Assembly (NCBI GenBank): GCA_913054135.1 | Contig: CAJXJK010000005.1 | Coordinates: 206,925-270,924 of the forward strand | DNA length: 64,000 bases | Direction of reading: 5' to 3' | Source of the DNA: an uncultured Flavobacteriales bacterium | Lineage (GTDB): Bacteria > Bacteroidota > Bacteroidia > Flavobacteriales_D > Crocinitomicaceae | Shown: positions 2,778-16,488 of the stretch, piece by piece | How positions within the stretch are numbered: position 1 is the first letter of the stretch | Layout of the letters: each line of letters starts with the position of its first letter | Notes under the pieces: model-generated | Seen by the model: the letters and a program-made list of their open reading frames with translations, nothing else | Told to the model about the DNA's origin: nothing | Databases searched by the model: none | Position numbers and translations under genes: made by a program

Positions 2778-2817
2778 TTAATGTCACGAAAAGTTGAAGG
2801 TAAAGGCCTTAACTTTG
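2774..2817 (+). promoter_or_regulatory. Internal promoter for the MBL-rhodanese gene: GTGA-N6-TCAC palindrome plus -7 element
   Basis: GTGATTAATGTCAC at 2774-2787; TAACTTTG at 2810-2817 fits the Bacteroidota TAnnTTTG consensus; ATG at 2835. Confidence 0.45.
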
Positions 2818-2834
2818 AAGTAAGATTTAAAAGA

Positions 2835-4244
2835 ATGAAAGTAGAACAATTATATACAGGATGTTTGGCACAAGGTGCTTATTACATTGAAAGTAACGGA
2901 GAAGCGGCAATCATTGATCCGCTAAGAACAGTTGACGGCTACATTAAAATGGCTGCAGATAGAGGAGCGAAGATTAAGTATATTTTTGAGACTCACTTTC
3001 ATGCAGATTTTGTGAGTGGTCACGTGACCTTGGCGAAGGCCACAGGTGCTCCTATAGTTTACGGTCCGACCGCGAATCCACAATTTGATTGTGTGATAGG
3101 AGAAGACAATCAAGAATTCAAATTGGGTGATGTGACTATCAAATTGTTACACACTCCTGGTCATACCATGGAGAGTTCATCATATTTATTGATTGATGAA
3201 AACGGTAAAGAGCATTCATTGTTTTCAGGTGATACCTTGTTCTTAGGAGATGTTGGACGTCCTGATTTAGCTCAAAAGGCTGCTTCAATGACACAAGAAG
3301 AATTGGCAGGAATACTTTATGAAAGTTTAAGAAATAAGGTGATGACTTTGGCAGATGATGTGATTGTTTATCCTGGACATGGAGCAGGTTCTGCATGTGG
3401 TAAAAACATGAGTTCTGAAACAGTTGGTTCAATTGGACACGAGAAAGCAACAAACTATGCTTTGAGAGCAGATATGTCAAAAGAAGAGTTTGTCAAAGAA
3501 GTTACAGATGGCTTAATGGCTCCCCCAGCATATTTTCCTCTGAATGTTAAAATGAATAAAGAAGGATACGATCACTTTGATGAGGTATTGAATAGATCAA
3601 ATAAAGGTTTAAGTCCTCAAGCATTTGATGCTGCTGCGAATGAAACAAGTGCTGTAGTTTTAGATACAAGACATCAAACAGAATTCTCAAAAGGATTTAT
3701 ACCAAAATCTACTTTCATAGGAATTGATGGTGGATTTGCTCCTTGGGTTGGAGCATTGATTAAAGATGTTGAACAACCAATATTACTTGTGGTAGACGAA
3801 GGAAGAAGAGAAGAAGTAGTTACTAGGCTGGCAAGAGTAGGTTTTGATAATGTGTTAGGGTATTTAGAAGGAGGATTTGAAGCTTGGAAAGCGTCAGGTA
3901 AAGAAGTAGATTCTTTTGAAAGCATTTCAGCTGAAGACCTAGCAAAAATTCAAGGTAATGAAGACGTTAAGATTTGTGATGTCAGAAAACCTGGCGAGTA
4001 TGCTGCAGAACATATTGATGGAGCATGTACGGCACCATTAGATGATTTGAATAACTATTTAGAAAAGTTCGATCCAAACAAAACTAATTATGTTCACTGC
4101 TTAGGAGGGTACAGATCGGTAATAGCAATTTCAATATTAAAAGCAAGAGGAATCCATAATGTGGTTGACGTTCTTGGAGGCTTTAAAGCAATTGAAAAAG
4201 CAGATTTTAAGTTGACAGATTTTGTCTGTCCAACGACTTCATAA
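2835..4244 (+). CDS. MBL-fold persulfide dioxygenase-like hydrolase fused to two rhodanese domains (CstB/Blh-like)
   Basis: ETHFHADFVSG, HTPGHT, GDTLF.GDVGRPDL, YPGHGAGSACGK; C-terminal rhodanese with HCLGGYRS. Start set at MKVEQLY. Confidence 0.9.
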   Translation: MKVEQLYTGCLAQGAYYIESNGEAAIIDPLRTVDGYIKMAADRGAKIKYIFETHFHADFVSGHVTLAKATGAPIVYGPTANPQFDCVIGEDNQEFKLGDVTIKLLHTPGHTMESSSYLLIDENGKEHSLFSGDTLFLGDVGRPDLAQKAASMTQEELAGILYESLRNKVMTLADDVIVYPGHGAGSACGKNMSSETVGSIGHEKATNYALRADMSKEEFVKEVTDGLMAPPAYFPLNVKMNKEGYDHFDEVLNRSNKGLSPQAFDAAANETSAVVLDTRHQTEFSKGFIPKSTFIGIDGGFAPWVGALIKDVEQPILLVVDEGRREEVVTRLARVGFDNVLGYLEGGFEAWKASGKEVDSFESISAEDLAKIQGNEDVKICDVRKPGEYAAEHIDGACTAPLDDLNNYLEKFDPNKTNYVHCLGGYRSVIAISILKARGIHNVVDVLGGFKAIEKADFKLTDFVCPTTS

Positions 4245-4261
4245 AACTAAAAATTATAATA

Positions 4262-4666
4262 ATGAAAACGCTAAGATTATTAATGTTGGCAGCAACTTTT
4301 ACTGCCTTAAATGTAGGTTTCAGTATAAGCGCTAAACCTGCAATTCATCAACAAGATGATAAAAAACAAGTAGCTAAAAGAGTTACTCAAACTGAGTTTA
4401 AACAAAAACTTAAATCACTAAAAAATGTGCAGCTCATTGATGTGAGAACGAAAGGGGAGTTTAGCAGAGGAACAATTGAAGGAGCCGTAAATATAGATTA
4501 CAACTCATCTTCATTCAAAACCATGATTGGTAAACTAGATCGATCTAAGCCAACCATGATATTTTGTCATTCAGGAGGAAGAAGCTCGGCAGCTTTGAGA
4601 CAATTTAAGGCGCTCAAGTTTGAATATGTTCTTGAATTAGAAGGTGGATACAGCCATTGGAAATAA
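4262..4666 (+). CDS. Exported rhodanese-like domain protein
   Basis: Signal peptide MKTLRLLMLAATFTALNVGFSISA; LIDVRT..EF..G.I.GA; active-site FCHSGGRS; ELEGG. Confidence 0.88.
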   Translation: MKTLRLLMLAATFTALNVGFSISAKPAIHQQDDKKQVAKRVTQTEFKQKLKSLKNVQLIDVRTKGEFSRGTIEGAVNIDYNSSSFKTMIGKLDRSKPTMIFCHSGGRSSAALRQFKALKFEYVLELEGGYSHWK

Positions 4667-4674
4667 GCTGAGGT

Positions 4675-4911
4675 ATGTTAAAAGCGATAGAAAAGAATAT
4701 TAGTTTGTGGGCAATGGCCTCTTTCACTTTAGGACTTGCTCCTTTTAATCCACCGCACATTTGGGGTAAAATTCAATGGATAATGGGTGGAGCTGTAGGT
4801 ATGAAGGCTGTTGATTGGGGAGATTTCTTCATGCATGGCACTCCTTGGATCCTTTTGATAGTGGCACTTTCACTGAAACTGAAAAATAAATTACAAAAAA
4901 AAACATCTTAG
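4675..4911 (+). CDS. Small conserved two-TM membrane protein
   Basis: 78 aa with hydrophobic segments and a LGLAPF.PPHIWGKIQWI.GGA.GM...DW.D..MHG.PW motif; co-oriented with the rhodanese cluster. Confidence 0.7.
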   Translation: MLKAIEKNISLWAMASFTLGLAPFNPPHIWGKIQWIMGGAVGMKAVDWGDFFMHGTPWILLIVALSLKLKNKLQKKTS

Positions 4912-4912
4912 C

Positions 4913-4942
4913 ATAGGGGTAAGTTCATTTTGAGTTGTCATA
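4913..4942 (+). promoter_or_regulatory. Putative ECF-sigma promoter, copy 1
   Basis: ATAGGGGTAA-gttcattttg-AGTTGTCATA; both boxes and spacing are identical to 11004-11033. Confidence 0.75.
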
Positions 4943-4968
4943 TAACCAAAGACACAAAAATTAACAAA

Positions 4969-5700
4969 ATGAAAACTTTAAAAATTACCCTTATCGCATT
5001 AGCCGGATTGGCAACAATTACATCTTGTAAAAAAGGAGGCGTGTTCTGTTATGGAGCAAACGGCAATACAACAACCGAAACTAGAACGGCATCTAATTTT
5101 GATGAAGTAGAACTAGCAATGGCTGGAGATGTTTATATCACAAAAGCCGATAACTATTCAGTGCAAATTGAAGCTTCTGACAACCTTCATGAGATTATAG
5201 AAACGAAAGTGAGCGGATCTGAACTAGAAATTGACCTTCAAAACAATAAATGTTTAAAAGGGAATTCGAACGTCAAGATTTACATAACAATGCCCGAATT
5301 GACAGGCTTAACAGTTTCAGGGTCTGGCGGGATTTATGTTTCTTCATTCTTCGATTCAAACTCAATGGATATTGATATCTCGGGCTCTGGAGAAATTGAA
5401 ATGGATAGCTTAAAGGTGAATTCTTTTGACGCGAATATCTCAGGGTCAGGAGAAATGCTGATTCATGGTGTTGATACTTGCAATAATCAAAAATTGAATA
5501 TTTCGGGTTCTGGAAAATTCAGAGGTTATGATATGCTTACCAAAAGTTCAGACATTGACATATCAGGCTCAGGAAATTGTGAAATCAATGTTGTCAATGA
5601 CATTAAAGCAAGAATTTCAGGAAGCGGTAATGTAATTTATAAAGGTTCTCCTTCAATCGATTCAAATATTTCAGGATCAGGAACAGTAAGACCTTATTAA
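4969..5700 (+). CDS. Head GIN domain (DUF2807-like) lipoprotein
   Basis: Lipobox ITSC; repeated ISGSG/VSGSG beta-helix units; C-terminal ARISGSGNVIYKGSP. Start set at MKTLKIT. Confidence 0.85.
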   Translation: MKTLKITLIALAGLATITSCKKGGVFCYGANGNTTTETRTASNFDEVELAMAGDVYITKADNYSVQIEASDNLHEIIETKVSGSELEIDLQNNKCLKGNSNVKIYITMPELTGLTVSGSGGIYVSSFFDSNSMDIDISGSGEIEMDSLKVNSFDANISGSGEMLIHGVDTCNNQKLNISGSGKFRGYDMLTKSSDIDISGSGNCEINVVNDIKARISGSGNVIYKGSPSIDSNISGSGTVRPY

Positions 5701-5710
5701 TAATTTAATC

Positions 5711-5736
5711 GGTGAGAGAATTTCGGTTCTCTCACC
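5711..5736 (+). terminator. Strong hairpin after the GIN gene, abutting the sigma-factor promoter
   Basis: GGTGAGAGAA-tttcgg-TTCTCTCACC, a perfect 10-bp stem with a weak U-tract. Confidence 0.55.
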
Positions 5737-5737
5737 T

Positions 5738-5745
5738 TATCTTTG
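5738..5745 (+). promoter_or_regulatory. Housekeeping -7 element of the ECF sigma gene
   Basis: TATCTTTG, 5 nt before the GTG start at 5751. Confidence 0.55.
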
Positions 5746-5750
5746 TTTAA

Positions 5751-6308
5751 GTGCAATTAGTGGCTGATAAAATATCCCTCAATCAATTCGAAGATCTTTT
5801 TCGATCTCAGTATTCAGATTTATGTGCTGTAGCGAATAAGTATTTACAGGATTTAGATGCTGCCGAAGAGATTGTTCAATCTGTATTTGTGAAGTTTTGG
5901 GAAAGCCGAGAGAGTCTTCAGATCAAACAATCAATCAAAGGATATTTATTTACAGCAGTGAAGAATAATTGCCTAAATCAAATTAAGCACTTAAAAATTA
6001 AAGAAGAATATAAGGCACATAATCAAAGAGAGATTGCCTTAGAAGAAAGTCAATTTGAAGGAGAATTGGAAGGTTCTGAATTAGCCAAAAAAATCCAAGA
6101 ATCTATAGATAAATTGCCGGATGCTAGAAAGCAAATCTTCGTGCTTAGCCGATATGAAGGCTTGAAGTATAAAGAAATAGCCGAGAAATTAAACATCAGT
6201 ATAAAAACAGTTGAAAATCAAATGGGAAGCGCACTCAAATTCATGAAATCACAACTTTCAGAATATTTAGTAAGCCTATTAATTTTTATCATTTATATCT
6301 GGAAGTAA
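5751..6308 (+). CDS. ECF sigma-70 factor (Bacteroidota FecI-like)
   Basis: Region 2 AEEIVQSVFVKFWE...KGYLFTAVKNNCLN; region 4 IFVLSRYEGLKYKEIAEKLNISIKTVENQMGSALK; hydrophobic C-terminal tail; adjacent to fecR. Confidence 0.93.
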   Translation: MQLVADKISLNQFEDLFRSQYSDLCAVANKYLQDLDAAEEIVQSVFVKFWESRESLQIKQSIKGYLFTAVKNNCLNQIKHLKIKEEYKAHNQREIALEESQFEGELEGSELAKKIQESIDKLPDARKQIFVLSRYEGLKYKEIAEKLNISIKTVENQMGSALKFMKSQLSEYLVSLLIFIIYIWK

Positions 6309-6328
6309 ATGAAGTATTAATTGTCATA
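6299..6328 (+). promoter_or_regulatory. Putative ECF-sigma promoter, copy 2 (degenerate), upstream of FecR
   Basis: CTGGAAGTAA-atgaagtatt-AATTGTCATA; same 10-nt spacer; overlaps the sigma stop codon. Confidence 0.6.
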
Positions 6329-6338
6329 AGAGAAGAAC

Positions 6339-7346
6339 ATGTCAGAAAACAACTACATAGAATTCAATGAAGCAACCCTAATGGCTTATATCAACAAAGA
6401 GTTGAGTGATGAGCATATGGGAATGGTAGATCATTGGCTGACACTTTCTGATGATAACCAAGAAGAGATGGATAAATTGAAGAAGATATGGGACGGAAGT
6501 AAATTGGTAGCTGTGACCCCAGTTACTGTTGACACTGAAAGTGCATTGAAAAATGTACTTTCCCAAATTGATACCTCTGAAGAAAAAGTAATCCCAATTG
6601 AAAAGCCAACTAATTTCAGAAGAATATTCTTGTCTGCGGCAGCAATTATGATAGCATTAATTGGGGTCGTAGGATTACTCAATTACATTAATGGATCAGT
6701 TGAACAAATGAGTTTGACGGCGAGCTCGGGGATTTTAGAAAGTGAACTTCCTGATGGTACTTCAGTGAGCCTTAATGAAAACGCAACCTTAAAATATCAA
6801 AGTGAATTCTCTTCAAATGAAAGAAGAGTTGCGCTTGAAGGAGAGGCATTTTTTGATGTTGAACGAAACGAAGAAAAACCTTTTATCATTGATCTACATC
6901 ATGAGTCATATGTGAAAGTTTTAGGAACTTCATTCAATATTGATGCAGATGATAAGAAAGAGTTCACTACGGTATATGTTAAAAGCGGAAAGGTTGAATT
7001 CGGAACAGAGAAGGACCAAGTGACACTCAATGCTGGCGAAACTGGAGTAATGAATAATCTCACTGGTGAAGTTGAGAGGCGAGTAAATGAAAGCGAAGAG
7101 ATGAAAAGCATTTACTGGAAAACGCAAGAACTTGATTTTGATGACATCAAACTCTCTGAAACTATTGAGATATTGGAAGATGTTTTTGAAGTAAAAATTG
7201 ATCTGAATTGCATAGAAAAAGGAGACGATAGATTGGTGTCACATCACAAAGATGAGACGCTAGATGAAATTCTAAATGTTATTGCAACTGTTCTAGACCT
7301 TGATCTTATTCAAACCAGAGTATCTTATCAATTAAATTGTGATTAA
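6339..7346 (+). CDS. FecR-family anti-sigma factor
   Basis: N-terminal anti-sigma helices, single TM (ILSAAAIMIALIGVVGLL), LPDGTSVSLN, RRVALEGEAFFDV, VKVLGTSFN, VKSGKVEF, C-terminal STN-binding domain. Confidence 0.93.
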   Translation: MSENNYIEFNEATLMAYINKELSDEHMGMVDHWLTLSDDNQEEMDKLKKIWDGSKLVAVTPVTVDTESALKNVLSQIDTSEEKVIPIEKPTNFRRIFLSAAAIMIALIGVVGLLNYINGSVEQMSLTASSGILESELPDGTSVSLNENATLKYQSEFSSNERRVALEGEAFFDVERNEEKPFIIDLHHESYVKVLGTSFNIDADDKKEFTTVYVKSGKVEFGTEKDQVTLNAGETGVMNNLTGEVERRVNESEEMKSIYWKTQELDFDDIKLSETIEILEDVFEVKIDLNCIEKGDDRLVSHHKDETLDEILNVIATVLDLDLIQTRVSYQLNCD

Positions 7347-9195
7347 AAAAGCACTTTTGTTCCTATTGGTATTGCTTTGCGTTCAATCTGCAGATGCAAA
7401 AAAAATGCTTTTAGATAGAGTCATTTCAATTGAGATTAAGGCAACTCCAATCAAGAGAATCTTGAAGGCAATTGAAGAAAAAGCACAAGTTAAATTCTCC
7501 TACAATCCTGATCTCATTGATGAGAATAAAATTGTTGATTTAGTGATAAAAGAGAAGTCCATCCGTGATGGTCTTTCTATGATTTTTGACGGAACAGTTC
7601 GTTTTAAAGAGGTAGGGAATCACATTGTTCTCTTGCAAAATGAATCAAAAGAGCAAATCAAAGAACGTAGAAAAGAAAAGGGGGATTACATTTTTCAAGG
7701 CTTAATAAGTGATAAGAGAACAGGCAAAGCTATTCAAGGCGCCAGCGTATATGATGTTGATGCCAGGTTTGCAGCTGTTTCTCATGCTAACGGAAGGTAT
7801 AGGTTAGAAATTCCGAAAGAAGAAAGTGTAAGAAGTTTATACTTCAAGAAAAAGGGCTATGAGGCACAAGTCATTGTAATTAGGGCAGATGATGCCTTTT
7901 CTTGGGTAAACAATATCAGCTTAGTTCCCATTGAAATTGATGTCAATAAAATTGGGGTGTCGGCCATTGAGAAAGTAGAAGTGCCAATTGAAGAAAGAGC
8001 GCTTTCAGGGGCTTTGGTTTCTGAAGATACTTATATCCATTCTGAAAATTTAGAAGAAATAGATGAGGTGCGTTTTGCCCAAATATCTTTAGTGCCTTCG
8101 GTTGGTATTGGCTCAAACCTTTCCACAAATGGTTTGATCACCAATAATTTATCTCTTAACATCTTAGCAGGATATTCAAACGGAGTGGATGGCGTTGAAG
8201 TTGGAGGGCTCATGAACATGACAAAGGGAGATGTAAGTGGAGTTCAAGTTGCTGGAATTACCAGTTTAGTGGGTGGTGATGTTCAAGGGGTGCAAGCTGC
8301 AGGAATCGCAAATCTCATTCAAGGTAATTTTGACGGAACTCAAATTTCAGGTGTGAGTGGAATTGTGAAGGGAGATTTCATTGGATTTCAAGGATCAGGA
8401 ATCTCCTCAATAGTTAGAGGCGGTTATCGCGGCATTCAGTTAAGCGGTATTAGTAATGTCGCTTTTAAAGATTCGTATGGTTTCCAGTTTGCAGGTATTT
8501 CAAATACAGTTTTTGACACCTTAGTTGGAGGGCAAGTTTCTGGAATTGCCAACTTCGCCTTAAAAGGTTCTAACTATTTGCAAGTATCCGGCATCACAAA
8601 TCTTGCCGAGAACAATTATGGATTACAAGTAACTGGAATCTTTAATAGAGCTAAACATAACGGAGGCCTTCAACTTGGTTTGGTTAACCTGAGCAAAACA
8701 AGTACGGGAATCGCTATTGGCCTTTTCAATTATGTCCGTAAAGGATACCATAAAACAGAGGTGGCTGCAAATGAAATATTCCCGGTCAATCTAACCTTTA
8801 AAACAGGGGTTCAAAGATTATACAATACTTATCATTTCGGAGTTAAATTTGGTCCGAGCAGAGCGTATGCTGCTGGTTTAGGATTCGGAACTTTTTTCAG
8901 GCTCAACAATAAAATGACAATCAGTCTTGATCTATCTGGTGATATGGCCTATGAACCAGAATTGAATGTTAATGGTTTTTCTCAGCTTTATAAACTGTCT
9001 TCGACATTTGATTATCAAATCGCAAAATGGGTAACTGTATTTGGCGGTCCATCTTTCAATGTAAACGTCATGCAATTTCAAGATGATACTGGTCAATACA
9101 ATTCTAACCTCTCATTCAATCCTTTCTACAATGAGCAATTCACTAATGCAGGTGTACAGTGTTGGGTGGGCGGGCAAATTGGATTTAGGTTTTAA
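7339..9195 (+). CDS. STN + CarboxypepD_reg-like + Gly-rich GxQxxGxxN repeat (LA_2272-like) + C-terminal OM barrel protein
   Basis: Signal peptide; STN (LLDRVISIEIKATPIKRILKAIEEKAQVKFSYNPDLI); GLISDKRTGKAIQGASVYD; about a dozen ~15-aa repeats; ends GGQIGFRF. No TonB-receptor plug or 22-strand barrel length. GTG start overlaps the fecR stop. Confidence 0.8.
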   Translation: MIKKALLFLLVLLCVQSADAKKMLLDRVISIEIKATPIKRILKAIEEKAQVKFSYNPDLIDENKIVDLVIKEKSIRDGLSMIFDGTVRFKEVGNHIVLLQNESKEQIKERRKEKGDYIFQGLISDKRTGKAIQGASVYDVDARFAAVSHANGRYRLEIPKEESVRSLYFKKKGYEAQVIVIRADDAFSWVNNISLVPIEIDVNKIGVSAIEKVEVPIEERALSGALVSEDTYIHSENLEEIDEVRFAQISLVPSVGIGSNLSTNGLITNNLSLNILAGYSNGVDGVEVGGLMNMTKGDVSGVQVAGITSLVGGDVQGVQAAGIANLIQGNFDGTQISGVSGIVKGDFIGFQGSGISSIVRGGYRGIQLSGISNVAFKDSYGFQFAGISNTVFDTLVGGQVSGIANFALKGSNYLQVSGITNLAENNYGLQVTGIFNRAKHNGGLQLGLVNLSKTSTGIAIGLFNYVRKGYHKTEVAANEIFPVNLTFKTGVQRLYNTYHFGVKFGPSRAYAAGLGFGTFFRLNNKMTISLDLSGDMAYEPELNVNGFSQLYKLSSTFDYQIAKWVTVFGGPSFNVNVMQFQDDTGQYNSNLSFNPFYNEQFTNAGVQCWVGGQIGFRF

Positions 9196-9295
9196 TCAAA
9201 AAATCCAATTCATCTAGCAGATAATAAACTGCTTGCTTTTGTTTAATTAGATAATTGCGAGATTAATTCATTGTTTCTTTCTTTAAAGAAAAAAG

Positions 9296-10246
9296 ATGAA
9301 ACTGCTCTTCCTCATATTTGCTATTATCCCGTTTACCATCTTTGCCCAAAAGGCTAATGACTTAGGAGTTTATGATTATTATGCTCTTCATCAAAAAAAT
9401 GAACCAAAACAAGGATTCATTGTCCTTTCTGATATGTTCCCTTTTGACGAATTCAAAGGTGATAACAATATTATTGCACCAGAACATCTAGGTGAATTTG
9501 AGTTTTCGAATGATAACTATCATGAGTTAAAGGGTGAAAACCGAGACCGATTTTTAGGGGCCCTGAAAATTCAAGAAACAGACTTTCTTTTCGTCAACAA
9601 TCTAAATCTAAATAAGATTAAATCGTTCAAGGTGAGTCAGCTAAAACTAACAGCCTTCTTGAGTCCATATCGTCCTGATATTACTGTGCATAATTGGGAT
9701 TACCTCATAGGTTTTGAGTTGGGTTCTGTTCAAATGCCATTTAATCCTCCAGATATTTATGGTCAAACAATCTTTTCATGCGTCGGCGCAAAGAATCCTT
9801 TTAATCAAGGCAAAGCAGAACCAATGAAGTGGAAAAAAGTTAATCAAAGTGAGTTTATTTGGAAGCTAGAGAAAGATGAAACTCCAAAACATATGCTAGA
9901 CATTAAGTACAAGAGCGTCTATAAATTCAAGTGGAGCAAATTAAATTATTACGTTCGTGAAATCTATGCAGGTGATTTTCTCTATGGTTATTACCTTGTT
10001 GTTACAAAGTCTAAATCAGGAGAGAAGGTGAACTCAATGCTCTTTTTTGAAAGCGAAGGCACTTACCTTCAACCCTTGAATGGTCAAAAAAATAGTTCTG
10101 GAGACCTGCAGTTCACCGGCTATATCTTCAAAGATAAACCACCAATCATTTATGGTTTTCAATCAAACTCTTTTGGATGCCCTTACATTTCCTTCGCAGA
10201 TGATACCGATAATTACCTTTGGTTAAAGTGCGATAATAGACACTAA
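9296..10246 (+). CDS. Exported hypothetical protein
   Basis: 316-aa ORF with signal peptide MKLLFLIFAIIPFTIFA; ends FGCPYISF...WLKCDNRH. Confidence 0.7.
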   Translation: MKLLFLIFAIIPFTIFAQKANDLGVYDYYALHQKNEPKQGFIVLSDMFPFDEFKGDNNIIAPEHLGEFEFSNDNYHELKGENRDRFLGALKIQETDFLFVNNLNLNKIKSFKVSQLKLTAFLSPYRPDITVHNWDYLIGFELGSVQMPFNPPDIYGQTIFSCVGAKNPFNQGKAEPMKWKKVNQSEFIWKLEKDETPKHMLDIKYKSVYKFKWSKLNYYVREIYAGDFLYGYYLVVTKSKSGEKVNSMLFFESEGTYLQPLNGQKNSSGDLQFTGYIFKDKPPIIYGFQSNSFGCPYISFADDTDNYLWLKCDNRH

Positions 10247-10280
10247 GAAAATCTTAACTTAGTGAGCTCAATAAAAGCCC

Positions 10281-10973
10281 ATGGGAATCGGAAAATACTT
10301 TGGAGGCGTTTGGAAAATATTCGCTTCAATCACGCTCACCTTATTCATTTTAAGTGTAATCATTTATGGATTAGACTTGAATGTAAGCCAACCTGAAACG
10401 AATAAGCAAACGATTACGAGCCATCTTGAAAATGAACGCTCAACAAGACATTATTTTGAATTGAACGATTCTATTTGTTTTGTTGTCGATACCGAAGAAG
10501 CAAAAGAAGACCGTGTGGTCACCATGAAGTCATATACCACAAACTTTGTCCCTTTCTGTTATTTCTGTGGATATAATCGAGGAACGTATCGTTATGAATA
10601 CGGGATCTACATTGATGAACCGTACATGTATGGTGATTTTGTTTACACCAAAATCCCTTATGATTATGATGACGGAGAAATTCCATTCGGCAGCTTTCAA
10701 ACGTACAATTTCAAAACAGGCAAAGATGGTTATGTTGAGCAATTAGAAGATATCGGGCCAGACGCAGCAAATAACAAATACAGGGTCACTGAAGATTATC
10801 TCTTAGAGAATAACGGCCTAATTTCTTACTACGAAAATGAATCTTGTCAAATCGCCTTTGGGGTCATTTTTGTTTTGGTTGCAGGTTTATTATTAGGAGC
10901 AATGATTGGTGTTCCAATTAGAGTTTATCGATTTAGAAAGCAAGCTAAAAAAGAGGCTCAAGGCGAATCTTAA
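10281..10973 (+). CDS. Hypothetical membrane protein (N- and C-terminal TM helices, Tyr-rich loop)
   Basis: 230-aa ORF with two hydrophobic segments flanking a soluble domain. Confidence 0.65.
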   Translation: MGIGKYFGGVWKIFASITLTLFILSVIIYGLDLNVSQPETNKQTITSHLENERSTRHYFELNDSICFVVDTEEAKEDRVVTMKSYTTNFVPFCYFCGYNRGTYRYEYGIYIDEPYMYGDFVYTKIPYDYDDGEIPFGSFQTYNFKTGKDGYVEQLEDIGPDAANNKYRVTEDYLLENNGLISYYENESCQIAFGVIFVLVAGLLLGAMIGVPIRVYRFRKQAKKEAQGES

Positions 10974-11003
10974 TCAAAGCCATATAGAAAATTTTCTCTC
11001 CCA

Positions 11004-11033
11004 ATAGGGGTAAACGTTCTTTCAGTTGTCATA
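11004..11033 (+). promoter_or_regulatory. Putative ECF-sigma promoter, copy 3
   Basis: ATAGGGGTAA-acgttctttc-AGTTGTCATA, 24 nt upstream of the TonB receptor ATG. Confidence 0.75.
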
Positions 11034-11057
11034 AATGTGAAACAAGCATTTTAGACA

Positions 11058-13421
11058 ATGAAAACAACAAAAATTCTATTATTACTTTCTATCCTTTTTA
11101 TCGGAGGATCATCTTTTTCTCAAGGTTTAACTCAAACGCTTAGAGGAACAATTATTGACTTTGATTCTAAGGTTCCGCTCATTGGAGCTAAAGTAATCGT
11201 TTTCGGAACAGATCCTTTGCAAGGTTCAGTAACTGACCTCAATGGAGATTTTAAAATTGAAAATGTCAAAGTAGGTCGGGCAGCTATTCAAATTACTTCC
11301 ACAGGATATAAGCCCATTTCAATGCCTTCAGTTCTAATCGAGTCAGGGAAAGAGAAAATCCTGAATCTTCAAATGACAGAAGACATCAAAGTACTTGGGG
11401 CAGTTGATGTAAAAGCCAATAAAGATAAATCAGAGTCTATCAACAAAATGGCAACAACATCAGCCAAAACATTTACAGTTGAAGAAACAAACAGATATGC
11501 CGGTTCATTAAATGATCCTGCCAGAATGGTCTCTGGTTTTGCAGGTGTCACGGGGGATGCAGAAGGAGATAACGACATTGTCGTGAGAGGGAACTCCCCG
11601 CGTGGCATCCTTTGGAGATTAGAAGGAATTGATATTCCAAATCCAAATCACTTTTCTGATAACGGAGCAACCGGTGGTCCTATAAACGCATTGAACGGAT
11701 CGGTTTTAGCCAACTCTGATTTCTTTTCAGGAGCCTTTGCACCTGAATATGGTAATGCACTCTCAGGAGTGTTTGACGTCAAAATGAGAACAGGAAACAA
11801 TGAAAAAAGAGAGTATTCATTCTCTGCTGGTGTTATCGGTTTAGACGGAACATTAGAAGGACCTTTTTCTAAAAACTCAAGAGCATCATACATGGTGAAC
11901 TATAGGTATTCATCAATCGCATTGTTGGATAAAGCTGGTATTCTTGATTTTGACGGAATTCCAATTTATCAAGACGCCGCATTTAAGCTCAACTTTCCAA
12001 CTAAAAAGGCCGGAACTTTCACCCTAATTGGTTTGGGTGGAATGAGTAAAATTGATCAAACAGATCAAAATGATTCTACTGGTGAAGTGTACGGTAGGTA
12101 CGACTTCAAAGCCAACTTGGGAGTAGCAGGATTAAAGCACACATACATTGTGAATCCTAAAGTTTATGTGAAAAGTTTTATCTCAGCATCTACTCAATAT
12201 AATGGCGGAGAAGGGCAGTTTTTAAATTCAGATTCAGTCTTGTTCTTATCCGAACGAGAAGGGAATACTGATAACCAATTAAAGGCGCAATCTATCGTGA
12301 ATTATAAGATGAACAAGAAGAACATCTTTCAAGTAGGTGCCACCTACACGCATTTCAACTACAATTTCTATTACGAAGACGACTATGATGATGAAGACGG
12401 AATTATGACACGTCATAATAATTCAAAAGGAGATGCCGATATGCTGCAATCATTCTTGAGTTGGAAGTACAGAATTACCAATGATCTGACGGTCGTGTCA
12501 GGAGTCCATCATACCCATTACCTATTGAACAACAATTTTAAAGTTGAACCGAGAGTTGGGATGAAATGGCAACTAAATCCAAGACACAGTTTATCTGCTG
12601 GTTTCGGGATGCATTCAAAACTAGAATCACCTTCGGTTTATTTGTACAATGAATTGCAAGAAGATGGATCATATAAATATCCAAACAGAGATTTAGATCT
12701 AACAAAGAGTACTCATTATGTTTTAGGATATGGTTTCAGAATCTCTGAACACTTACACTTGAAGTCTGAAGTATATTATCAAGCTTTATCAAACATTCCA
12801 GTAGCTAAGGATACTGCAGCTGAATCAGGCTTCTTTAGTTTCGTGAATTGGTCTTCAGGAGTTCCAGATTTTGAATTGGTAAATGAAGGTACGGGTCATA
12901 ATTATGGAGCTGAATTGACATTGGAAAGATTCTTTGAAAACAACTTCTATTTCTTGTTAACGGGCTCGATTTATAAATCACAATACAAGGGGTCTGATGG
13001 TATTTTGAGAGATACGCGATATGACGCCAATTTCGCTTCTAATTTCTTGGCAGGTAAAGAATTCAAATTTGGTAAAAAGAAGAATTTAAATAAGACATTC
13101 GGAATCAACACTAAGGTATCGTTGATTGGTGGAAACAGATTTACTCCAATTGATTTACAAGCTTCTCAAGATGCCGGATATACGGTAAGAGATTGGGACA
13201 ATCCTTGGGGTAAAAAAGGAGAGAATGTGTTCTTCATCAATTTAGGATTGACATACAGATGCGACATGAAAAGAGCAAGTCACTCTTTCAAAATTGACAT
13301 TCAAAATCTTACAAATAATCAATCTGTTGTTTCAGAATATTATAACGGCAGAACAGGAACTATAGACACTGATACGCAACTGTCTTTCATTCCAAACATC
13401 ATTTATACAATTAAATTTTAA
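11058..13421 (+). CDS. TonB-dependent receptor with CarboxypepD_reg-like N-terminus (no STN)
   Basis: Signal peptide; QTLRGTIIDFDSKVPLIGA; plug NDPARMV...VVRGNSPRGILWRLEGIDIPNPNHF; FFSGAFAPEYGNALSGVFD; C-terminal PNIIYTIKF. Confidence 0.9.
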   Translation: MKTTKILLLLSILFIGGSSFSQGLTQTLRGTIIDFDSKVPLIGAKVIVFGTDPLQGSVTDLNGDFKIENVKVGRAAIQITSTGYKPISMPSVLIESGKEKILNLQMTEDIKVLGAVDVKANKDKSESINKMATTSAKTFTVEETNRYAGSLNDPARMVSGFAGVTGDAEGDNDIVVRGNSPRGILWRLEGIDIPNPNHFSDNGATGGPINALNGSVLANSDFFSGAFAPEYGNALSGVFDVKMRTGNNEKREYSFSAGVIGLDGTLEGPFSKNSRASYMVNYRYSSIALLDKAGILDFDGIPIYQDAAFKLNFPTKKAGTFTLIGLGGMSKIDQTDQNDSTGEVYGRYDFKANLGVAGLKHTYIVNPKVYVKSFISASTQYNGGEGQFLNSDSVLFLSEREGNTDNQLKAQSIVNYKMNKKNIFQVGATYTHFNYNFYYEDDYDDEDGIMTRHNNSKGDADMLQSFLSWKYRITNDLTVVSGVHHTHYLLNNNFKVEPRVGMKWQLNPRHSLSAGFGMHSKLESPSVYLYNELQEDGSYKYPNRDLDLTKSTHYVLGYGFRISEHLHLKSEVYYQALSNIPVAKDTAAESGFFSFVNWSSGVPDFELVNEGTGHNYGAELTLERFFENNFYFLLTGSIYKSQYKGSDGILRDTRYDANFASNFLAGKEFKFGKKKNLNKTFGINTKVSLIGGNRFTPIDLQASQDAGYTVRDWDNPWGKKGENVFFINLGLTYRCDMKRASHSFKIDIQNLTNNQSVVSEYYNGRTGTIDTDTQLSFIPNIIYTIKF

Positions 13422-13423
13422 TC

Positions 13424-14584
13424 ATGAAAAAGATATTCATAATAGGCGCTATCGCGCTCACATCACTTAGTAGTTTTTCTCAGGAAGATTCAACGCTAAC
13501 AAGAGCAACACAAGTTTCATTTATTTATCCTATCGGAACCAATGGAGTTGATGCAACCAAATACACAAACAACTTTTCATTCAATGTCCTTTATGGCTTA
13601 AACGGAGGCTTGAACGGTGTAGAAATTGGTGGACTAGTAAACTCAAATATAGGTGCTGTGAATGGCGCGCAGTTTGCAGGAATCGCTAACATCAACGGGG
13701 CAACAGCACATGGGTTTATGGGCGCCGGAATAGCAAACGTAATTAAGGATTCTTCAAATTCAATTTCAGGTGCTGGTATCGCAAATGTCTGTGGCGGAAA
13801 CTTTGTCGGATTGCAAATGGCAGGAATTGCAAACGCAGTAAAAGGTGATTTCTTAGGTGGTCAAATGTCAGGTATAGCAAATTTCAATCATGGCGATTTT
13901 AAAGGGGCACAACTTAGCGGAATTGCAAATACAAGTACGGGTAATTTTTATGGATTGCAGGGTTCTGGAATTGCAAATTTTGTTGGAGGAGATTTACAAG
14001 GTGCTCAGGTTGGATTGGTTAACCGTGCAAGAAAAATCAAAGGATTTCAATTGGGATTAATCAATGTTGCAAATGATTTTGAAAGTGGTGTTCCGCTTGG
14101 CTTGATCTCTTATGTTAAAAATGGATATCATGCCGTTGAGTTGGCTGGTGGTGATGCCGTTTACGGAAATCTAAATTTCAAATTAGGTGTAGAAAAGTTG
14201 TATAATATCTATAAGATTGGATTCGCACCCAATGGGTCTGAACAATACTTTACTTACGGTTTAGGGTTAGGAAGCAAACTGAATTTTACCGAAAAATTCG
14301 GTTTATCCATTGAAGGTTCTGCTTCGCACATTGTTCATCAAAACTTCAATCCAAGATTAGATATGTTGAACAAATTAGACGTCAACTTCAGATATGCATT
14401 GGGTGACCATTTTGACCTTTTTGCAGGGCCGTCTTTCAACGTATACTTATCACAACATGACCCTGAAACAGAATCTTCAGCACTCAATGTTCCTTATTCA
14501 TTGTTCACTCACAATTGGGGTAACGGAGAAGGTCAAACTTATATGTGGCTTGGAGCAAATGCTGGCATCTGCGTTAACTTCTAA
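13424..14584 (+). CDS. Gly-rich repeat (LA_2272-like) OM protein; paralog of the C-terminal half of 7339-9195
   Basis: QVSFIYPIGTN...TNNFSFNVLYGLNGGLNGVEIGGLVN, GxQxxGIAN repeats, GLISYVKNGYHAVE...FKLGVEKLYNIY, terminal GICVNF. Confidence 0.8.
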   Translation: MKKIFIIGAIALTSLSSFSQEDSTLTRATQVSFIYPIGTNGVDATKYTNNFSFNVLYGLNGGLNGVEIGGLVNSNIGAVNGAQFAGIANINGATAHGFMGAGIANVIKDSSNSISGAGIANVCGGNFVGLQMAGIANAVKGDFLGGQMSGIANFNHGDFKGAQLSGIANTSTGNFYGLQGSGIANFVGGDLQGAQVGLVNRARKIKGFQLGLINVANDFESGVPLGLISYVKNGYHAVELAGGDAVYGNLNFKLGVEKLYNIYKIGFAPNGSEQYFTYGLGLGSKLNFTEKFGLSIEGSASHIVHQNFNPRLDMLNKLDVNFRYALGDHFDLFAGPSFNVYLSQHDPETESSALNVPYSLFTHNWGNGEGQTYMWLGANAGICVNF

Positions 14585-14612
14585 TAAAGACTGTAAATAT
14601 CAAATCAATTTT

Positions 14613-14640
14613 AGGCCGACTTTTGTAGTCGGCCTTTTTT
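14613..14640 (+). terminator. Intrinsic terminator
   Basis: AGGCCGACT-tttgt-AGTCGGCCT followed by TTTTT. Confidence 0.85.
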
Positions 14641-14791
14641 GTCATTCAGAACAAAAAATGTCGTCTTGAACATTATTCAGAAATCCCAGAATAACATCAA
14701 AGTTGATTTAAGTTTTTATCAAAACGGAGTTTATTTATTGAACCTAGCAACAAAAGAAGGAAGCTTCTTTAAGAGAGTTGTCAAACAATAA
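14639..14791 (+). pseudogene. Orphan T9SS C-terminal sorting domain fragment
   Basis: Frame reads ...NNIKVDLSFYQNGVYLLNLATKEGSFFKRVVKQ*, typical of a type-A CTD tail. An in-frame stop at 14612-14614 lies just upstream; no signal peptide or cargo. Confidence 0.6.
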
Positions 14792-14810
14792 CTAACTGAA
14801 AACAATAAGC

Positions 14811-14849
14811 AAAGAGGCCAATCAAAATTTTGATTGGCCTCTTTTTTTT
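14811..14849 (+). terminator. Intrinsic terminator
   Basis: AAAGAGGCCAATCAAA / TTTGATTGGCCTCTTT long inverted repeat plus T-run. Confidence 0.85.
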
Positions 14850-14851
14850 GA

Positions 14852-14881
14852 GTAGGGGTATTGTATTGGGAATTCGTCTTA
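14852..14881 (+). promoter_or_regulatory. Putative ECF-sigma promoter, copy 4 (degenerate)
   Basis: GTAGGGGTAT-tgtattggga-ATTCGTCTTA; GGGGTA and GTC.TA cores with the same spacing as copies 1-3. Confidence 0.5.
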
Positions 14882-15006
14882 TTGACGAATAAGAAACCAA
14901 TTTTAACCAAATTAAGGTTGAAAAGTAAATGAATGACTTGGGTCGCCATTGAACCTTTTAGCTGTTATTTGTGTTATAGAGATACAAAACTTAAAAGACT
15001 ACTATT

Positions 15007-15237
15007 ATGTCGTATCATATAAATCTGAAGGAGAGAATCCAAAACAATGAATTGATTGGCTTTGAGATTTTTCAAGATTATCAAGGCAAAGCAGAAAAAA
15101 TGCTGCTTTACTTTCAGTCAGAACCTAAGATTAGACCTATCCTCAAGAACAAAATTGAAGAGTATAAGGTAATGCTCAAAGACATTAATACTCGTTTTGA
15201 GCAAATCACAACAGGCTTTTCACCAATATCACATTAG
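15007..15237 (+). CDS. Small hypothetical protein, paralog of 20945-21142
   Basis: 76 aa; 22/51 ungapped identities to the 20945 product; followed by hairpin AAAGCT-atct-AGCTTT plus T-run. Confidence 0.7.
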   Translation: MSYHINLKERIQNNELIGFEIFQDYQGKAEKMLLYFQSEPKIRPILKNKIEEYKVMLKDINTRFEQITTGFSPISH

Positions 15238-15333
15238 AAAGCTATCTAGCTTTTTTTCTTTCATTGCTTCATAAAGCTCATTAAATGTTGACGCATTAGA
15301 CACTCTTAGATAAAATCCCATTAAATTTGTGTC

Positions 15334-15945
15334 ATGTCTTTCAAAAAAATTAATCAAGAATTACTTGAGGTCTTAGCTGCAGAAGGTGTTGAATCGCCTA
15401 ATGATTTTCAAAAGGCTATGATTCCAAAAATTAAGTCTGGGGCTAGTTGTTACGGTTTTGCCGAAAAGGGAGCTGGTAAAACTACTACCGCCTTAATAAT
15501 GGCTTTGAATAAGATTGATTTTAAAGAGCAAGGTGACAATCCGCAAGTGGTAATATTTGCAGAGAACAAGAAGAAGGTTGTAGCGATTGAGGAGATGTTG
15601 AAAGAGCTAACTTTCAGAACTGAAATCAGAACATTCTCAATTTATGAAGAAGGCGATTTGACTTTTCAAAAGAATACCATTTATCCAGGGGTTGACATTT
15701 TGGTAGCCACAACTAAGCGATTTGCACAATTATATTTTCAGAACGGAATCAATTTGAACGAATTGAAAATGATTATGGTAGATGATGCTGAGTTTTTGAA
15801 TCGCGGCACTTCTCATACTGATCTTGATCGTATTAACGAGAGTTTGAAAAGTTGTCAATTCGTCCTGTTTGCTGCTGAAGATGATCCAAAATTTAAGAGG
15901 CTCAATGATTTATTCATGCAAAGAGCTGTTAAAGTGAAGGCTTAA
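15334..15945 (+). CDS. Single-domain degenerate DEAD-box helicase (RecA1 only)
   Basis: Q-motif GVESPNDFQKAMIP, Walker A AEKGAGKTTT, DILVATT, motif II MVDDAE; ends at 203 aa with no helicase C domain. TAAATTTG at 15322-15329. Confidence 0.8.
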   Translation: MSFKKINQELLEVLAAEGVESPNDFQKAMIPKIKSGASCYGFAEKGAGKTTTALIMALNKIDFKEQGDNPQVVIFAENKKKVVAIEEMLKELTFRTEIRTFSIYEEGDLTFQKNTIYPGVDILVATTKRFAQLYFQNGINLNELKMIMVDDAEFLNRGTSHTDLDRINESLKSCQFVLFAAEDDPKFKRLNDLFMQRAVKVKA

Positions 15946-16488
15946 CTATTTCTTTTTCTTCTTTTTTTTCTTTCGGTTGAAATTCAATCCATCCACATCC
16001 CATTTTCGGTCGGTGACCAAAGTAAAACGAAGTCTTATAAAAAGTCCGTTTGTGTTTGTGAAAGTATCGCTTGGGGTTAAGATGTGGTATCCAGCCTGTA
16101 AATGAAAGCCAAAAAGGCGATATCCAATCATAGGTGATATGCCATATCTCGTTTCGTCAAAGTTCGTTCTCAAAACCAAACTAGCGCCAAAACTCATGTT
16201 CAGTCGGCCTTGTTTATACCAATAGCCGGTTTCAAAACCTAGGGCTGGTTCTTCCCATCCAAAATTCATCCCCAAATGAATGCCGTGAACACTAGCCTTT
16301 GTCAAAGAAATCTTCTTGAACATCATTTCAGATCCTAATTCAATTACTGAAGCTCGTCCTAACTCATATCCAATATAAGGTCCTACTTTTCTTACCGAGA
16401 TGTCAAGCGGTTTAATCTTGAGGCGATCATCTGCGAAAGCAGTTTGAACCCCTAGTGAGAAAATAAATATGAATAATAGATACTTCAT
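15946..16488 (-). CDS. Exported, probably small beta-barrel protein with poly-Lys tail
   Basis: Signal peptide; alternating aromatic/Gly beta-strand pattern; C-terminal NRKKKKKKK. Confidence 0.65.
   Translation of the reverse strand: MKYLLFIFIFSLGVQTAFADDRLKIKPLDISVRKVGPYIGYELGRASVIELGSEMMFKKISLTKASVHGIHLGMNFGWEEPALGFETGYWYKQGRLNMSFGASLVLRTNFDETRYGISPMIGYRLFGFHLQAGYHILTPSDTFTNTNGLFIRLRFTLVTDRKWDVDGLNFNRKKKKKKKK

Follow-up and report, generated by a model that had tools for sequence, protein, structure and literature searches.

Positions 206,925 to 270,924 of contig CAJXJK010000005.1, a stretch of 64,000 nucleotides from an uncultured Flavobacteriales bacterium of the Crocinitomicaceae (hereafter the window), carry the genes of a putative trans-envelope signalling module. 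A gene for an extracytoplasmic function (ECF) sigma factor is followed there by a fecR gene and by the gene of an outer-membrane repeat protein that bears an STN domain, while a TonB-dependent transporter (TBDT) devoid of STN is encoded further downstream. The module is a real, conserved and apparently undescribed variant of FecR-type signalling, in which STN and transporter reside on separate proteins.

The open reading frames of the window give nine genes between positions 4930 and 14584, all on the + strand. A first-pass annotation of the same DNA had proposed a split signalling system of this kind, and all of its genes lie at the coordinates it gave, on the + strand and with the domains it named. 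The start and end that it set for the locus coincide with copies of a promoter motif described below. The features are as follows (position weight matrix, PWM; amino acids, aa; AlphaFold2, AF2).

4911–4942, + strand: promoter motif P1, ECF-type, GCATAGGGGTAAGTTCATTTTGAGTTGTCATA (exact pattern match; PWM score 38.0 bits; same position occupied in 18 other loci)
4969–5700, + strand: DUF2807 (GIN/Toastrack) beta-helix lipoprotein (Pfam PF10988)
5711–5736, + strand: terminator-like hairpin with an 11 bp stem and a T-rich tail, between the DUF2807 and sigma genes
5738–5745, + strand: candidate housekeeping promoter of the sigma, fecR and STN genes, TATCTTTG (match to a -7 box)
5751–6308, + strand: ECF sigma factor, Bacteroidota FecI-like subfamily (TIGR02985)
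6339–7346, + strand: FecR-type anti-sigma/sigma regulator (Pfam FecR and FecR_C)
7339–9195, + strand: STN-repeat outer-membrane protein, 618 aa (Pfam, AF2, Foldseek, profile search)
9296–10973, + strand: two lineage-specific genes, for a secreted protein of 316 aa (9296–10246) and a protein of 230 aa with two transmembrane segments (10281–10973)
11002–11033, + strand: promoter motif P2, ECF-type, CAATAGGGGTAAACGTTCTTTCAGTTGTCATA (PWM score 38.7 bits)
11058–13421, + strand: STN-less TBDT (Pfam, AF2, Foldseek)
13424–14584, + strand: STN-less paralogue of the STN-repeat protein, with LA_2272-family repeat and 8-strand barrel (NF047436)
14613–14635, + strand: intrinsic-terminator-like hairpin closing the TBDT–paralogue operon
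14850–14881, + strand: promoter motif P3, a third, weaker copy with TTCGTC in place of GTTGTC (PWM score 23.6 bits)

Domain architecture of the module proteins

The sigma factor reaches 181 bits on TIGR02985, against a cutoff of 126 (NCBIfam), and contains the Sigma70_r2 and r4_2 domains (Pfam). Its gene is followed after 30 nucleotides (nt) by fecR, whose product matches PF04773 (E 3.9e-15) and FecR_C, PF16344 (24.7 bits, cutoff 24.4), in Pfam. This regulator is composed of a cytoplasmic N-domain, a single transmembrane segment (aa 93–112), the FecR domain and FecR_C. In the FecR domain, residues 195–197 read LGT, which we take to correspond to the Gly-Thr site at which regulators of the FoxR type have been described to cleave themselves. 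The GTG start of the STN gene overlaps the fecR stop by 8 nt, so the STN-repeat protein is presumably made in step with FecR. From this overlap and the presence of the matching domains, we infer that the STN contacts FecR.

The STN-repeat protein consists of a signal peptide, an STN (aa 28–100), a SusC-type N-terminal extension (NTE), CarboxypepD_reg-like (aa 116–195), a linker (aa 196–242), a beta-solenoid of about ten 16-aa Gly/Gln/Asn repeats (aa 243–466) and an 8-strand barrel (aa 470–618) that ends in GFRF. Its AF2 model, built on 86 homologues, has a pLDDT of 88.7. In the model, aa 28–100 adopt a beta-alpha-beta-beta-alpha-beta-beta fold and aa 116–195 are all-beta; the linker is poorly defined and of low confidence. 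Short strands then succeed one another at intervals of 16 residues, at which GxQ also recurs (301, 317 … 397). From aa 470 onwards, eight long strands reach as far as the C-terminal Phe, with no helix between repeats and barrel.

Searched with Foldseek against the PDB, the first domain matches the signalling domain of PupB (TMt 0.64, rmsd 3.3) and the N0 domain of PilQ, and the C-terminal ~150 aa match the 8-strand barrels of OmpA, OprF, Opa60 and OmpX. All matches are domain-level, and the repeat region matches no structure in that database. At the sequence level, the whole protein has no match in the PDB, while a profile of the family matched by its NTE domain only, to the SusC NTE in 9hfj (E 8.5e-6) and 6ytc. 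Neither Pfam nor the AF2 model contains a plug domain. Together, the profile hidden Markov models, AF2 with Foldseek and the profile search give the architecture that the first-pass annotation had predicted: STN, CarboxypepD_reg, solenoid, small barrel and no plug. About half of the listed homologues carry precomputed matches to PF07660 (STN). In the Aureibacter orthologue (L021 6207–8165; related loci are denoted by L and a number), the N-terminal domain weakly matches FecR_C (17.8 bits), with no STN match. FecR C-terminal domains are reported to have an STN-like fold, with which this match is in keeping.

The barrel also indicates the side of the membrane on which the rest of the protein should lie. 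Bacterial outer-membrane barrels have an even number of strands and both of their ends are periplasmic. Here, the connections between strands count, in order, 4, 2, 5, 4, 9, 2 and 26 residues: turns of 2, 4 and 2 aa alternate with longer loops of 4, 5, 9 and 26 aa, and the chain terminates in Phe. This alternation gives short turns on the periplasmic side and longer loops outside only if the N-terminus of the barrel is periplasmic, with which strand count and C-terminal Phe agree; and since nothing that would cross the membrane lies between the STN/NTE part and the repeats, the latter would be periplasmic together with NTE and STN. The solenoid is thus predicted to hang into the periplasm, with surface exposure limited to ~45 loop residues.

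The TBDT matches CarboxypepD_reg, Plug (20.5 bits, below cutoff) and the barrel family PF00593 (40.8 bits) in Pfam. It is laid out as an NTE (aa 25–107), a TonB-box-like LGAVDVKA (aa 112–119), a plug and a 22-strand barrel, and it is the plug, the barrel fold and the TonB box that place it in the class. In the AF2 model, the 22-strand barrel is confident and the NTE at the N-terminus is all-beta; Foldseek aligns this model to PqqU, BauA, FpvA, BtuB and many other TBDTs (E ~1e-19, ~680 columns). No part of the sequence is more conserved than the plug, although confidence in its model is low. That this receptor lacks an STN, as the first reading of the locus had it, agrees with the Pfam scan and with its homologues, none of the 120 listed bearing PF07660. 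BLASTP detects no similarity between the NTE of the STN-repeat protein and that of the TBDT, and hence no sign of a recent fission of one gene into two proteins. In one metagenome-assembled genome (MAG; L005 11902–14312), the TBDT orthologue is split over two reading frames of 300 and 516 aa, through a frameshift, a pseudogene or an assembly error.

The gene that starts 2 nt after the TBDT stop codon encodes the second, STN-less repeat protein. It is a member of NF047436 (LA_2272 family surface repeat), with 37.8 bits against a cutoff of 25, whereas the STN-repeat protein reaches a sub-threshold 22 bits on the same model. The two are paralogues over aa 231–615 of the latter (34% identity, E 9e-57). 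A Crocinitomix catalasitica orthologue bears the name of the LA_2272 family.

At the other end of the module, the product of 4969–5700 matches PF10988 over the full profile (1–181 of 181; E 1.4e-44, 152.4 bits) and has the lipobox ITS-C20, in line with its earlier description as a GIN lipoprotein upstream of the sigma gene. The lipobox Cys is followed by KKGG, with no acidic residues after it. Acidic residues in that place are the surface-export signal of Bacteroidota lipoproteins.

Promoter motif and conservation across Bacteroidota

The bipartite, ECF-type motif ATAGGGGTAA-N11-RNTTGTC precedes two of the transcription units. In its reduced form, AGGGGTA-N15-GTC, it has exactly three matches in the 64 kb, all of them on the + strand and intergenic. 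The best other site in the window scores 5.9 bits in the PWM, against 38.7, 38.0 and 23.6 bits for P2, P1 and P3, values that are somewhat inflated, as the matrix was built from sites of the window, P1–P3 included, and of related loci. From the end of P1 it is 30 nt to the start codon of the DUF2807 gene, and from the end of P2 28 nt to that of the TBDT gene. The first-pass annotation had one motif linking all units of the locus. This holds for 4969 and 11058; no copy lies directly before fecR (6339) or 13424 in the window, both of which sit inside operons, behind 4969/5751 and behind 11058, respectively. The third copy, P3, follows two terminators, including a bidirectional one at 14811–14844, and is absent from the closest relative (L022). 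On its 3' side there is only a 76-aa open reading frame without family (15007–15237), then a DEAD-domain gene; P3 could drive a small protein or an RNA.

In other loci, the motif always lies on the coding strand and directly upstream of DUF2807, TBDT, paralogue or fecR genes. Besides the P1 position, a P2-like site before the TBDT or the paralogue is found in most related loci. Variants of the motif co-vary among the sites of one genome (GTGTCC in L016 and L008, GGGGGTAAATTG in L011, GGGGGAT in L018), as expected if one sigma factor reads all the sites of a genome. A motif of 28.7 bits also precedes a lone LA_2272 paralogue gene in Flammeovirga pectinis (L020 9897–11068). No sigma or fecR gene is nearby, so the regulon can be dispersed. 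The sigma factor of the module may thus recognise this motif and thereby drive the TBDT gene.

The sigma gene itself is preceded by other signals. A strong hairpin of differing sequence occupies the 5711–5736 position in ~10 related loci. Behind it, TATCTTTG at 5738–5745 matches what we take to be the -7 box of the Bacteroidota primary sigma factor, TAnnTTTG, and similar strings stand just before the sigma start in L001, L004, L006–L009, L011, L013 and L016. The sigma–fecR–STN operon thus probably has its own housekeeping promoter behind the terminator. Given the hairpin and the TAnnTTTG string before the sigma gene, transcription of the sensor genes would be basal and separate, with the DUF2807 gene as a probable output of the sigma factor. 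A generic sigma-70 scan, which does not model Bacteroidota promoters, returned 34 sites against 36 expected, i.e. no enrichment. The sequencing runs that share words with the window are metagenome DNA only.

We mapped the proteins and the motif of the window onto 24 further loci, for a total of 25. A scan of a genome collection with a narrower alignment (A2) yielded Crocinitomicaceae only, and the distant loci were added singly. Aureibacter (L021), a MAG of the Bacteroidales (L002) and metagenome contigs without classification are among the members of the set, and in these the STN protein is only 31–38% identical. The gene order is well preserved: fecR directly precedes the STN-repeat gene, abutting or usually overlapping it, in 25 of 25 loci, and the ECF sigma gene adjoins fecR in the window and stands before it in 24/24 loci. 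This invariant arrangement of fecR and the STN gene argues for a stoichiometric pair. The STN-less paralogue occurs in 20 and the DUF2807 gene in 19 of the 25 loci, and a TBDT orthologue in 18 of the 22 with enough flank. The claim that the gene set recurs in other genomes, distant Bacteroidota included, is borne out by this survey.

Two layouts can be told apart. In Crocinitomicaceae, a motif-driven DUF2807 gene and a terminator are followed by the sigma, fecR and STN genes, then by a motif-driven TBDT gene and its paralogue neighbour. In the more distant loci, those of the Bacteroidales MAG, of Aureibacter and of the metagenome contigs, one copy of the motif separates the sigma gene from fecR and another precedes the paralogue or the TBDT. 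The locus of Paracrocinitomix mangrovi (L001) has an extra short FecR-like gene of 259 aa before the DUF2807 gene (6783–7562). Its STN and TBDT genes are in turn separated by a second sigma-like gene, of 178 aa (11975–12511).

The family extends well beyond these loci. A word-indexed search for the STN-repeat architecture gave at least 551 matches, and an exhaustive profile search gave 3,584 clusters at E<=1e-30. Of the full-length clusters, formed at 50% identity, 150 or more have E<1e-164. In their source records, the homologues are named only 'hypothetical', 'STN domain-containing protein' or 'carboxypeptidase-like regulatory domain-containing protein'. The module had been put forward as undescribed, and we found no description of it in the literature searched (STN with FecR in Bacteroidetes, LA_2272, DUF2807 with FecR).

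Other genes lie in and around the locus. The pair at 9296–10973, between the STN gene and the TBDT, has no Pfam or NCBIfam match and no homologue in L001–L019; the closest relative, L022, alone has an unannotated 315-aa gene there, a match in position and size. On this comparison, the pair is outside the conserved core. Immediately upstream of the module (2781–4666) lie genes for an MBL-fold–rhodanese fusion and a small rhodanese, joined in L001 and L022 by a SulP/STAS sulfate-transporter gene. A link of the module to these sulfur genes was considered and rejected, the synteny being confined to L001, L004 and L022; the MBL/rhodanese neighbourhood is probably unrelated to the module. Downstream, 15334–15945 encodes a protein of 203 aa that has nothing of a DEAD-box helicase except its N-terminal DEAD/RecA-like domain (PF00270, 6.5e-19); the helicase C-terminal domain is lacking. 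On the - strand, 15946–16488 encodes a secreted, beta-rich protein of 180 aa without family match, which terminates in a run of nine lysines (…NRKKKKKKKK). Also on the - strand, 16771–19026 encodes a 751-aa protein with N-terminal TPR-like repeats and a membrane segment, whose C-terminal region, read by eye, resembles a PP2C/SpoIIE phosphatase. An Rfam scan of 4200–15500 gave a single sub-threshold match, to bglG and on a terminator hairpin, which we take as chance.

A proposed signalling mechanism and its rivals

Starting from the architectures, paralogy, synteny, gene overlap and conserved motif described above, we propose that the module is a conserved trans-envelope signalling system of Bacteroidota built on the FecI/FecR principle. 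That it works along the following lines we hold to be fairly likely, with a probability of roughly 0.6. The STN-repeat protein would be anchored in the outer membrane by its 8-strand barrel, with the ~10-turn beta-solenoid, the SusC-type NTE and the STN suspended in the periplasm. Upon arrival of a signal, FecR would release or activate the ECF sigma factor. The latter would then read ATAGGGGTAA-N11-RNTTGTC and switch on the gene of the DUF2807/Toastrack lipoprotein, the operon that encodes TBDT and solenoid paralogue, both of them STN-less, and, in this genome only, the orphan site at 14850.

As for the input, the periplasmic solenoid and NTE of the STN protein may read the state of the co-regulated TBDT, by which the transducer would be divided between two proteins; the induced STN-less paralogue could compete or pair with the STN protein. 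We favour such a relay from the co-regulated STN-less TBDT as the input, speculative as it is, and the part of the TBDT in sensing and the decoy role of the paralogue are speculative as well. Taken as a whole, a scheme in which FecR is activated by an outer-membrane-anchored periplasmic beta-solenoid arm reading a separate STN-less TBDT or the envelope, with the sigma-induced paralogue as a shut-off decoy, is a tentative one that we regard as possible and far from assured.

Several observations count against the proposed mechanism. In Pfam, the STN of the STN-repeat protein scores 24.9 bits (E 1.8e-5) against a gathering threshold of 28.4, and CarbopepD_reg_2 scores 26.5 against 32.2; the STN call is nonetheless backed by the AF2 fold, by the Foldseek matches to PupB and PilQ N0 and by the PF07660 matches of homologues. 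No conserved TonB box is visible in this protein, and the order of its domains, STN then NTE, is the reverse of that in SusC transducers (PMC7782687). The periplasmic placement of its repeats comes from topology rules applied to the AF2 secondary-structure read-out. Finally, the TBDT is missing from 4 of the 22 loci, and in a Crocinitomicaceae MAG (L012, 11923–13628) the second motif precedes an S33 alpha/beta-hydrolase lipoprotein instead, so that the TBDT may be an output only. The genes behind that second motif also include a 192-aa beta-rich protein; the TBDT and the paralogue are not there.

These same losses of the TBDT fit a sensor of the envelope state, or of stress, in which solenoid and STN would report outer-membrane or periplasmic integrity, or their own assembly, to FecR. 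The TBDT would then take no part in sensing, and the regulon, namely a TBDT-like protein, a solenoid protein and a Toastrack lipoprotein, would be an envelope-remodelling output. DUF2807 falls within the Toastrack domain, linked to membrane-stress signalling (PMC11237479), and every conserved output is an envelope protein. Where the TBDT is absent, the paralogue or another envelope protein keeps the motif; the STN protein has neither a plug nor an obvious TonB box, and no catabolic, SusD or siderophore genes are linked at the loci examined. Against this stands the conservation of the TBDT orthologue, the best-conserved protein of the module at 51–87% identity (alignment A3), while most homologues of the STN protein share only 31–55% (alignment A1). 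The TBDT is also motif-driven in most loci, like in classical receptor-inducing systems, and FecR-type regulators of known input respond to transporter ligands. We consider an envelope-state sensor somewhat unlikely, and nevertheless a serious rival.

Less survives of the interpretation originally given to the locus, in which the repeats were a surface ligand sensor, the paralogue a surface binding protein and the DUF2807 protein a surface adhesin. Names speak for it, since NCBIfam calls the repeat 'LA_2272 family surface repeat' and, in the Pfam description, DUF2807 is a putative autotransporter adhesin head. The succession of beta-helix and C-terminal barrel also bears a superficial resemblance to autotransporters. 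However, STN and NTE are N-terminal to the repeats and must be periplasmic to reach FecR, with no membrane-crossing segment in between, and the lengths of loops and turns fit a periplasmic N-terminus of the barrel. A type V autotransporter was rejected: the barrel has 8 strands (aa 470–617) rather than 12 and lacks a linker helix to fill the pore. The barrel topology thus speaks against the repeat-type surface sensor. Similarly, the lipoprotein has KKGG after its Cys in place of an acidic export signal, and DUF2807 has been unified with the Toastrack domain, a signalling scaffold of envelope-stress systems (PMC11237479), which leaves the adhesin unsupported. Altogether, this surface version looks improbable to us; what stands of the first-pass annotation is the STN off the TBDT, the gene set and the motif, and what lacks support is the surface sensor, the adhesin and the separate promoters for 6339 and 13424.

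That the STN-repeat protein is merely co-expressed, its N-terminal domain not talking to FecR and the sigma/FecR pair triggered otherwise, could appeal to the sub-threshold STN score of the window protein and to the homologues without a precomputed STN match, and is very hard to credit against a fecR–STN gene coupling that is invariant in 25/25 loci across deep divergence, an STN fold predicted with high confidence that matches PupB and PilQ N0, and a paralogue without STN that is never the gene coupled to fecR.

Relation to known systems and significance

For TBDT transducers and for SusC, it is established that the STN binds the anti-sigma factor (PMC7782687). With FecI/FecR/FecA systems (FecA, FpvA, PupB), the module has in common an ECF sigma gene beside that of a single-pass regulator with FecR and FecR_C domains, an STN on the outer-membrane partner and a sigma-type promoter before the TBDT gene. 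It departs from their defining feature, the STN as an N-terminal extension of the TBDT, as here the STN belongs to a solenoid protein with an 8-strand barrel. It also has no iron or Fur context, and its regulon adds a solenoid paralogue and a Toastrack lipoprotein. With ECF-controlled SusC/SusD loci, the module shares the TIGR02985 sigma subfamily, a FecR-type anti-sigma factor and the SusC-type NTE. None of its genes matches SusD/RagB, and an LA_2272 paralogue follows the TBDT. In SusC transducers, NTE and then STN lie on the transporter (PMC7782687); here, STN and then NTE lie on a separate protein, and the transporter keeps the NTE only.

The premise of the first-pass annotation, that the STN is always fused to the transporter, has a known exception, which is the nearest precedent for an STN off the transporter. 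VreA of the PUMA3 system of P. aeruginosa (VreA/VreI/VreR) carries an STN off the TBDT and has been proposed to relay from an unknown outer-membrane partner; the protein is periplasmic and soluble, and its C-domain is TolA/TonB-like (PMC2729926). Both systems thus place the STN on a receptor-like protein that is no TBDT. VreA, however, lacks barrel, solenoid and NTE; the gene order and the phylum differ, as does the regulon, which in PUMA3 consists of virulence and secretion genes, and neither Pfam, AF2 nor Foldseek finds a TonB_C-like match in the 7339–9195 protein.

Two further relations concern the families of the module. LA_2272 (NF047436) is defined by sequence, and its description includes neither the fusion to STN and NTE nor the link to sigma and FecR. 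Toastrack/DUF2807 proteins of the Psp and Lia envelope-stress systems share with the module the same beta-helix domain, encoded beside a signalling system with a sigma factor among its parts (PMC11237479). There, the Toastrack is predicted to be intracellular, whereas here it is on a secreted lipoprotein and is an apparent output of the sigma factor, not part of a fused sensor.

A Bacteroidota genome encodes over 20 ECF sigma factors on average, many of them paired with FecR-type regulators. To our knowledge, the only logic worked out for such pairs is that of an STN on the transporter. The module described here adds a second, conserved wiring, whose family has thousands of metagenomic members and in which signalling arm and transporter are separate, and this separation lets genetics ask which part senses and which transports. 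It also sets the LA_2272 repeat family and extracytoplasmic DUF2807/Toastrack lipoproteins in a functional context for the first time, and it provides a defined motif that is usable for regulon prediction in any genome. Culturable hosts of the module are at hand in Crocinitomix catalasitica ATCC 23190, Paracrocinitomix mangrovi and Aureibacter tunicatorum. If the solenoid arm does act as we tentatively suggest, it would be a new mode of FecR activation, not through the N-terminus of a transporter and possibly without a TonB box of its own, and the module would represent a regulatory circuit that is both widespread and peculiar to Bacteroidota.

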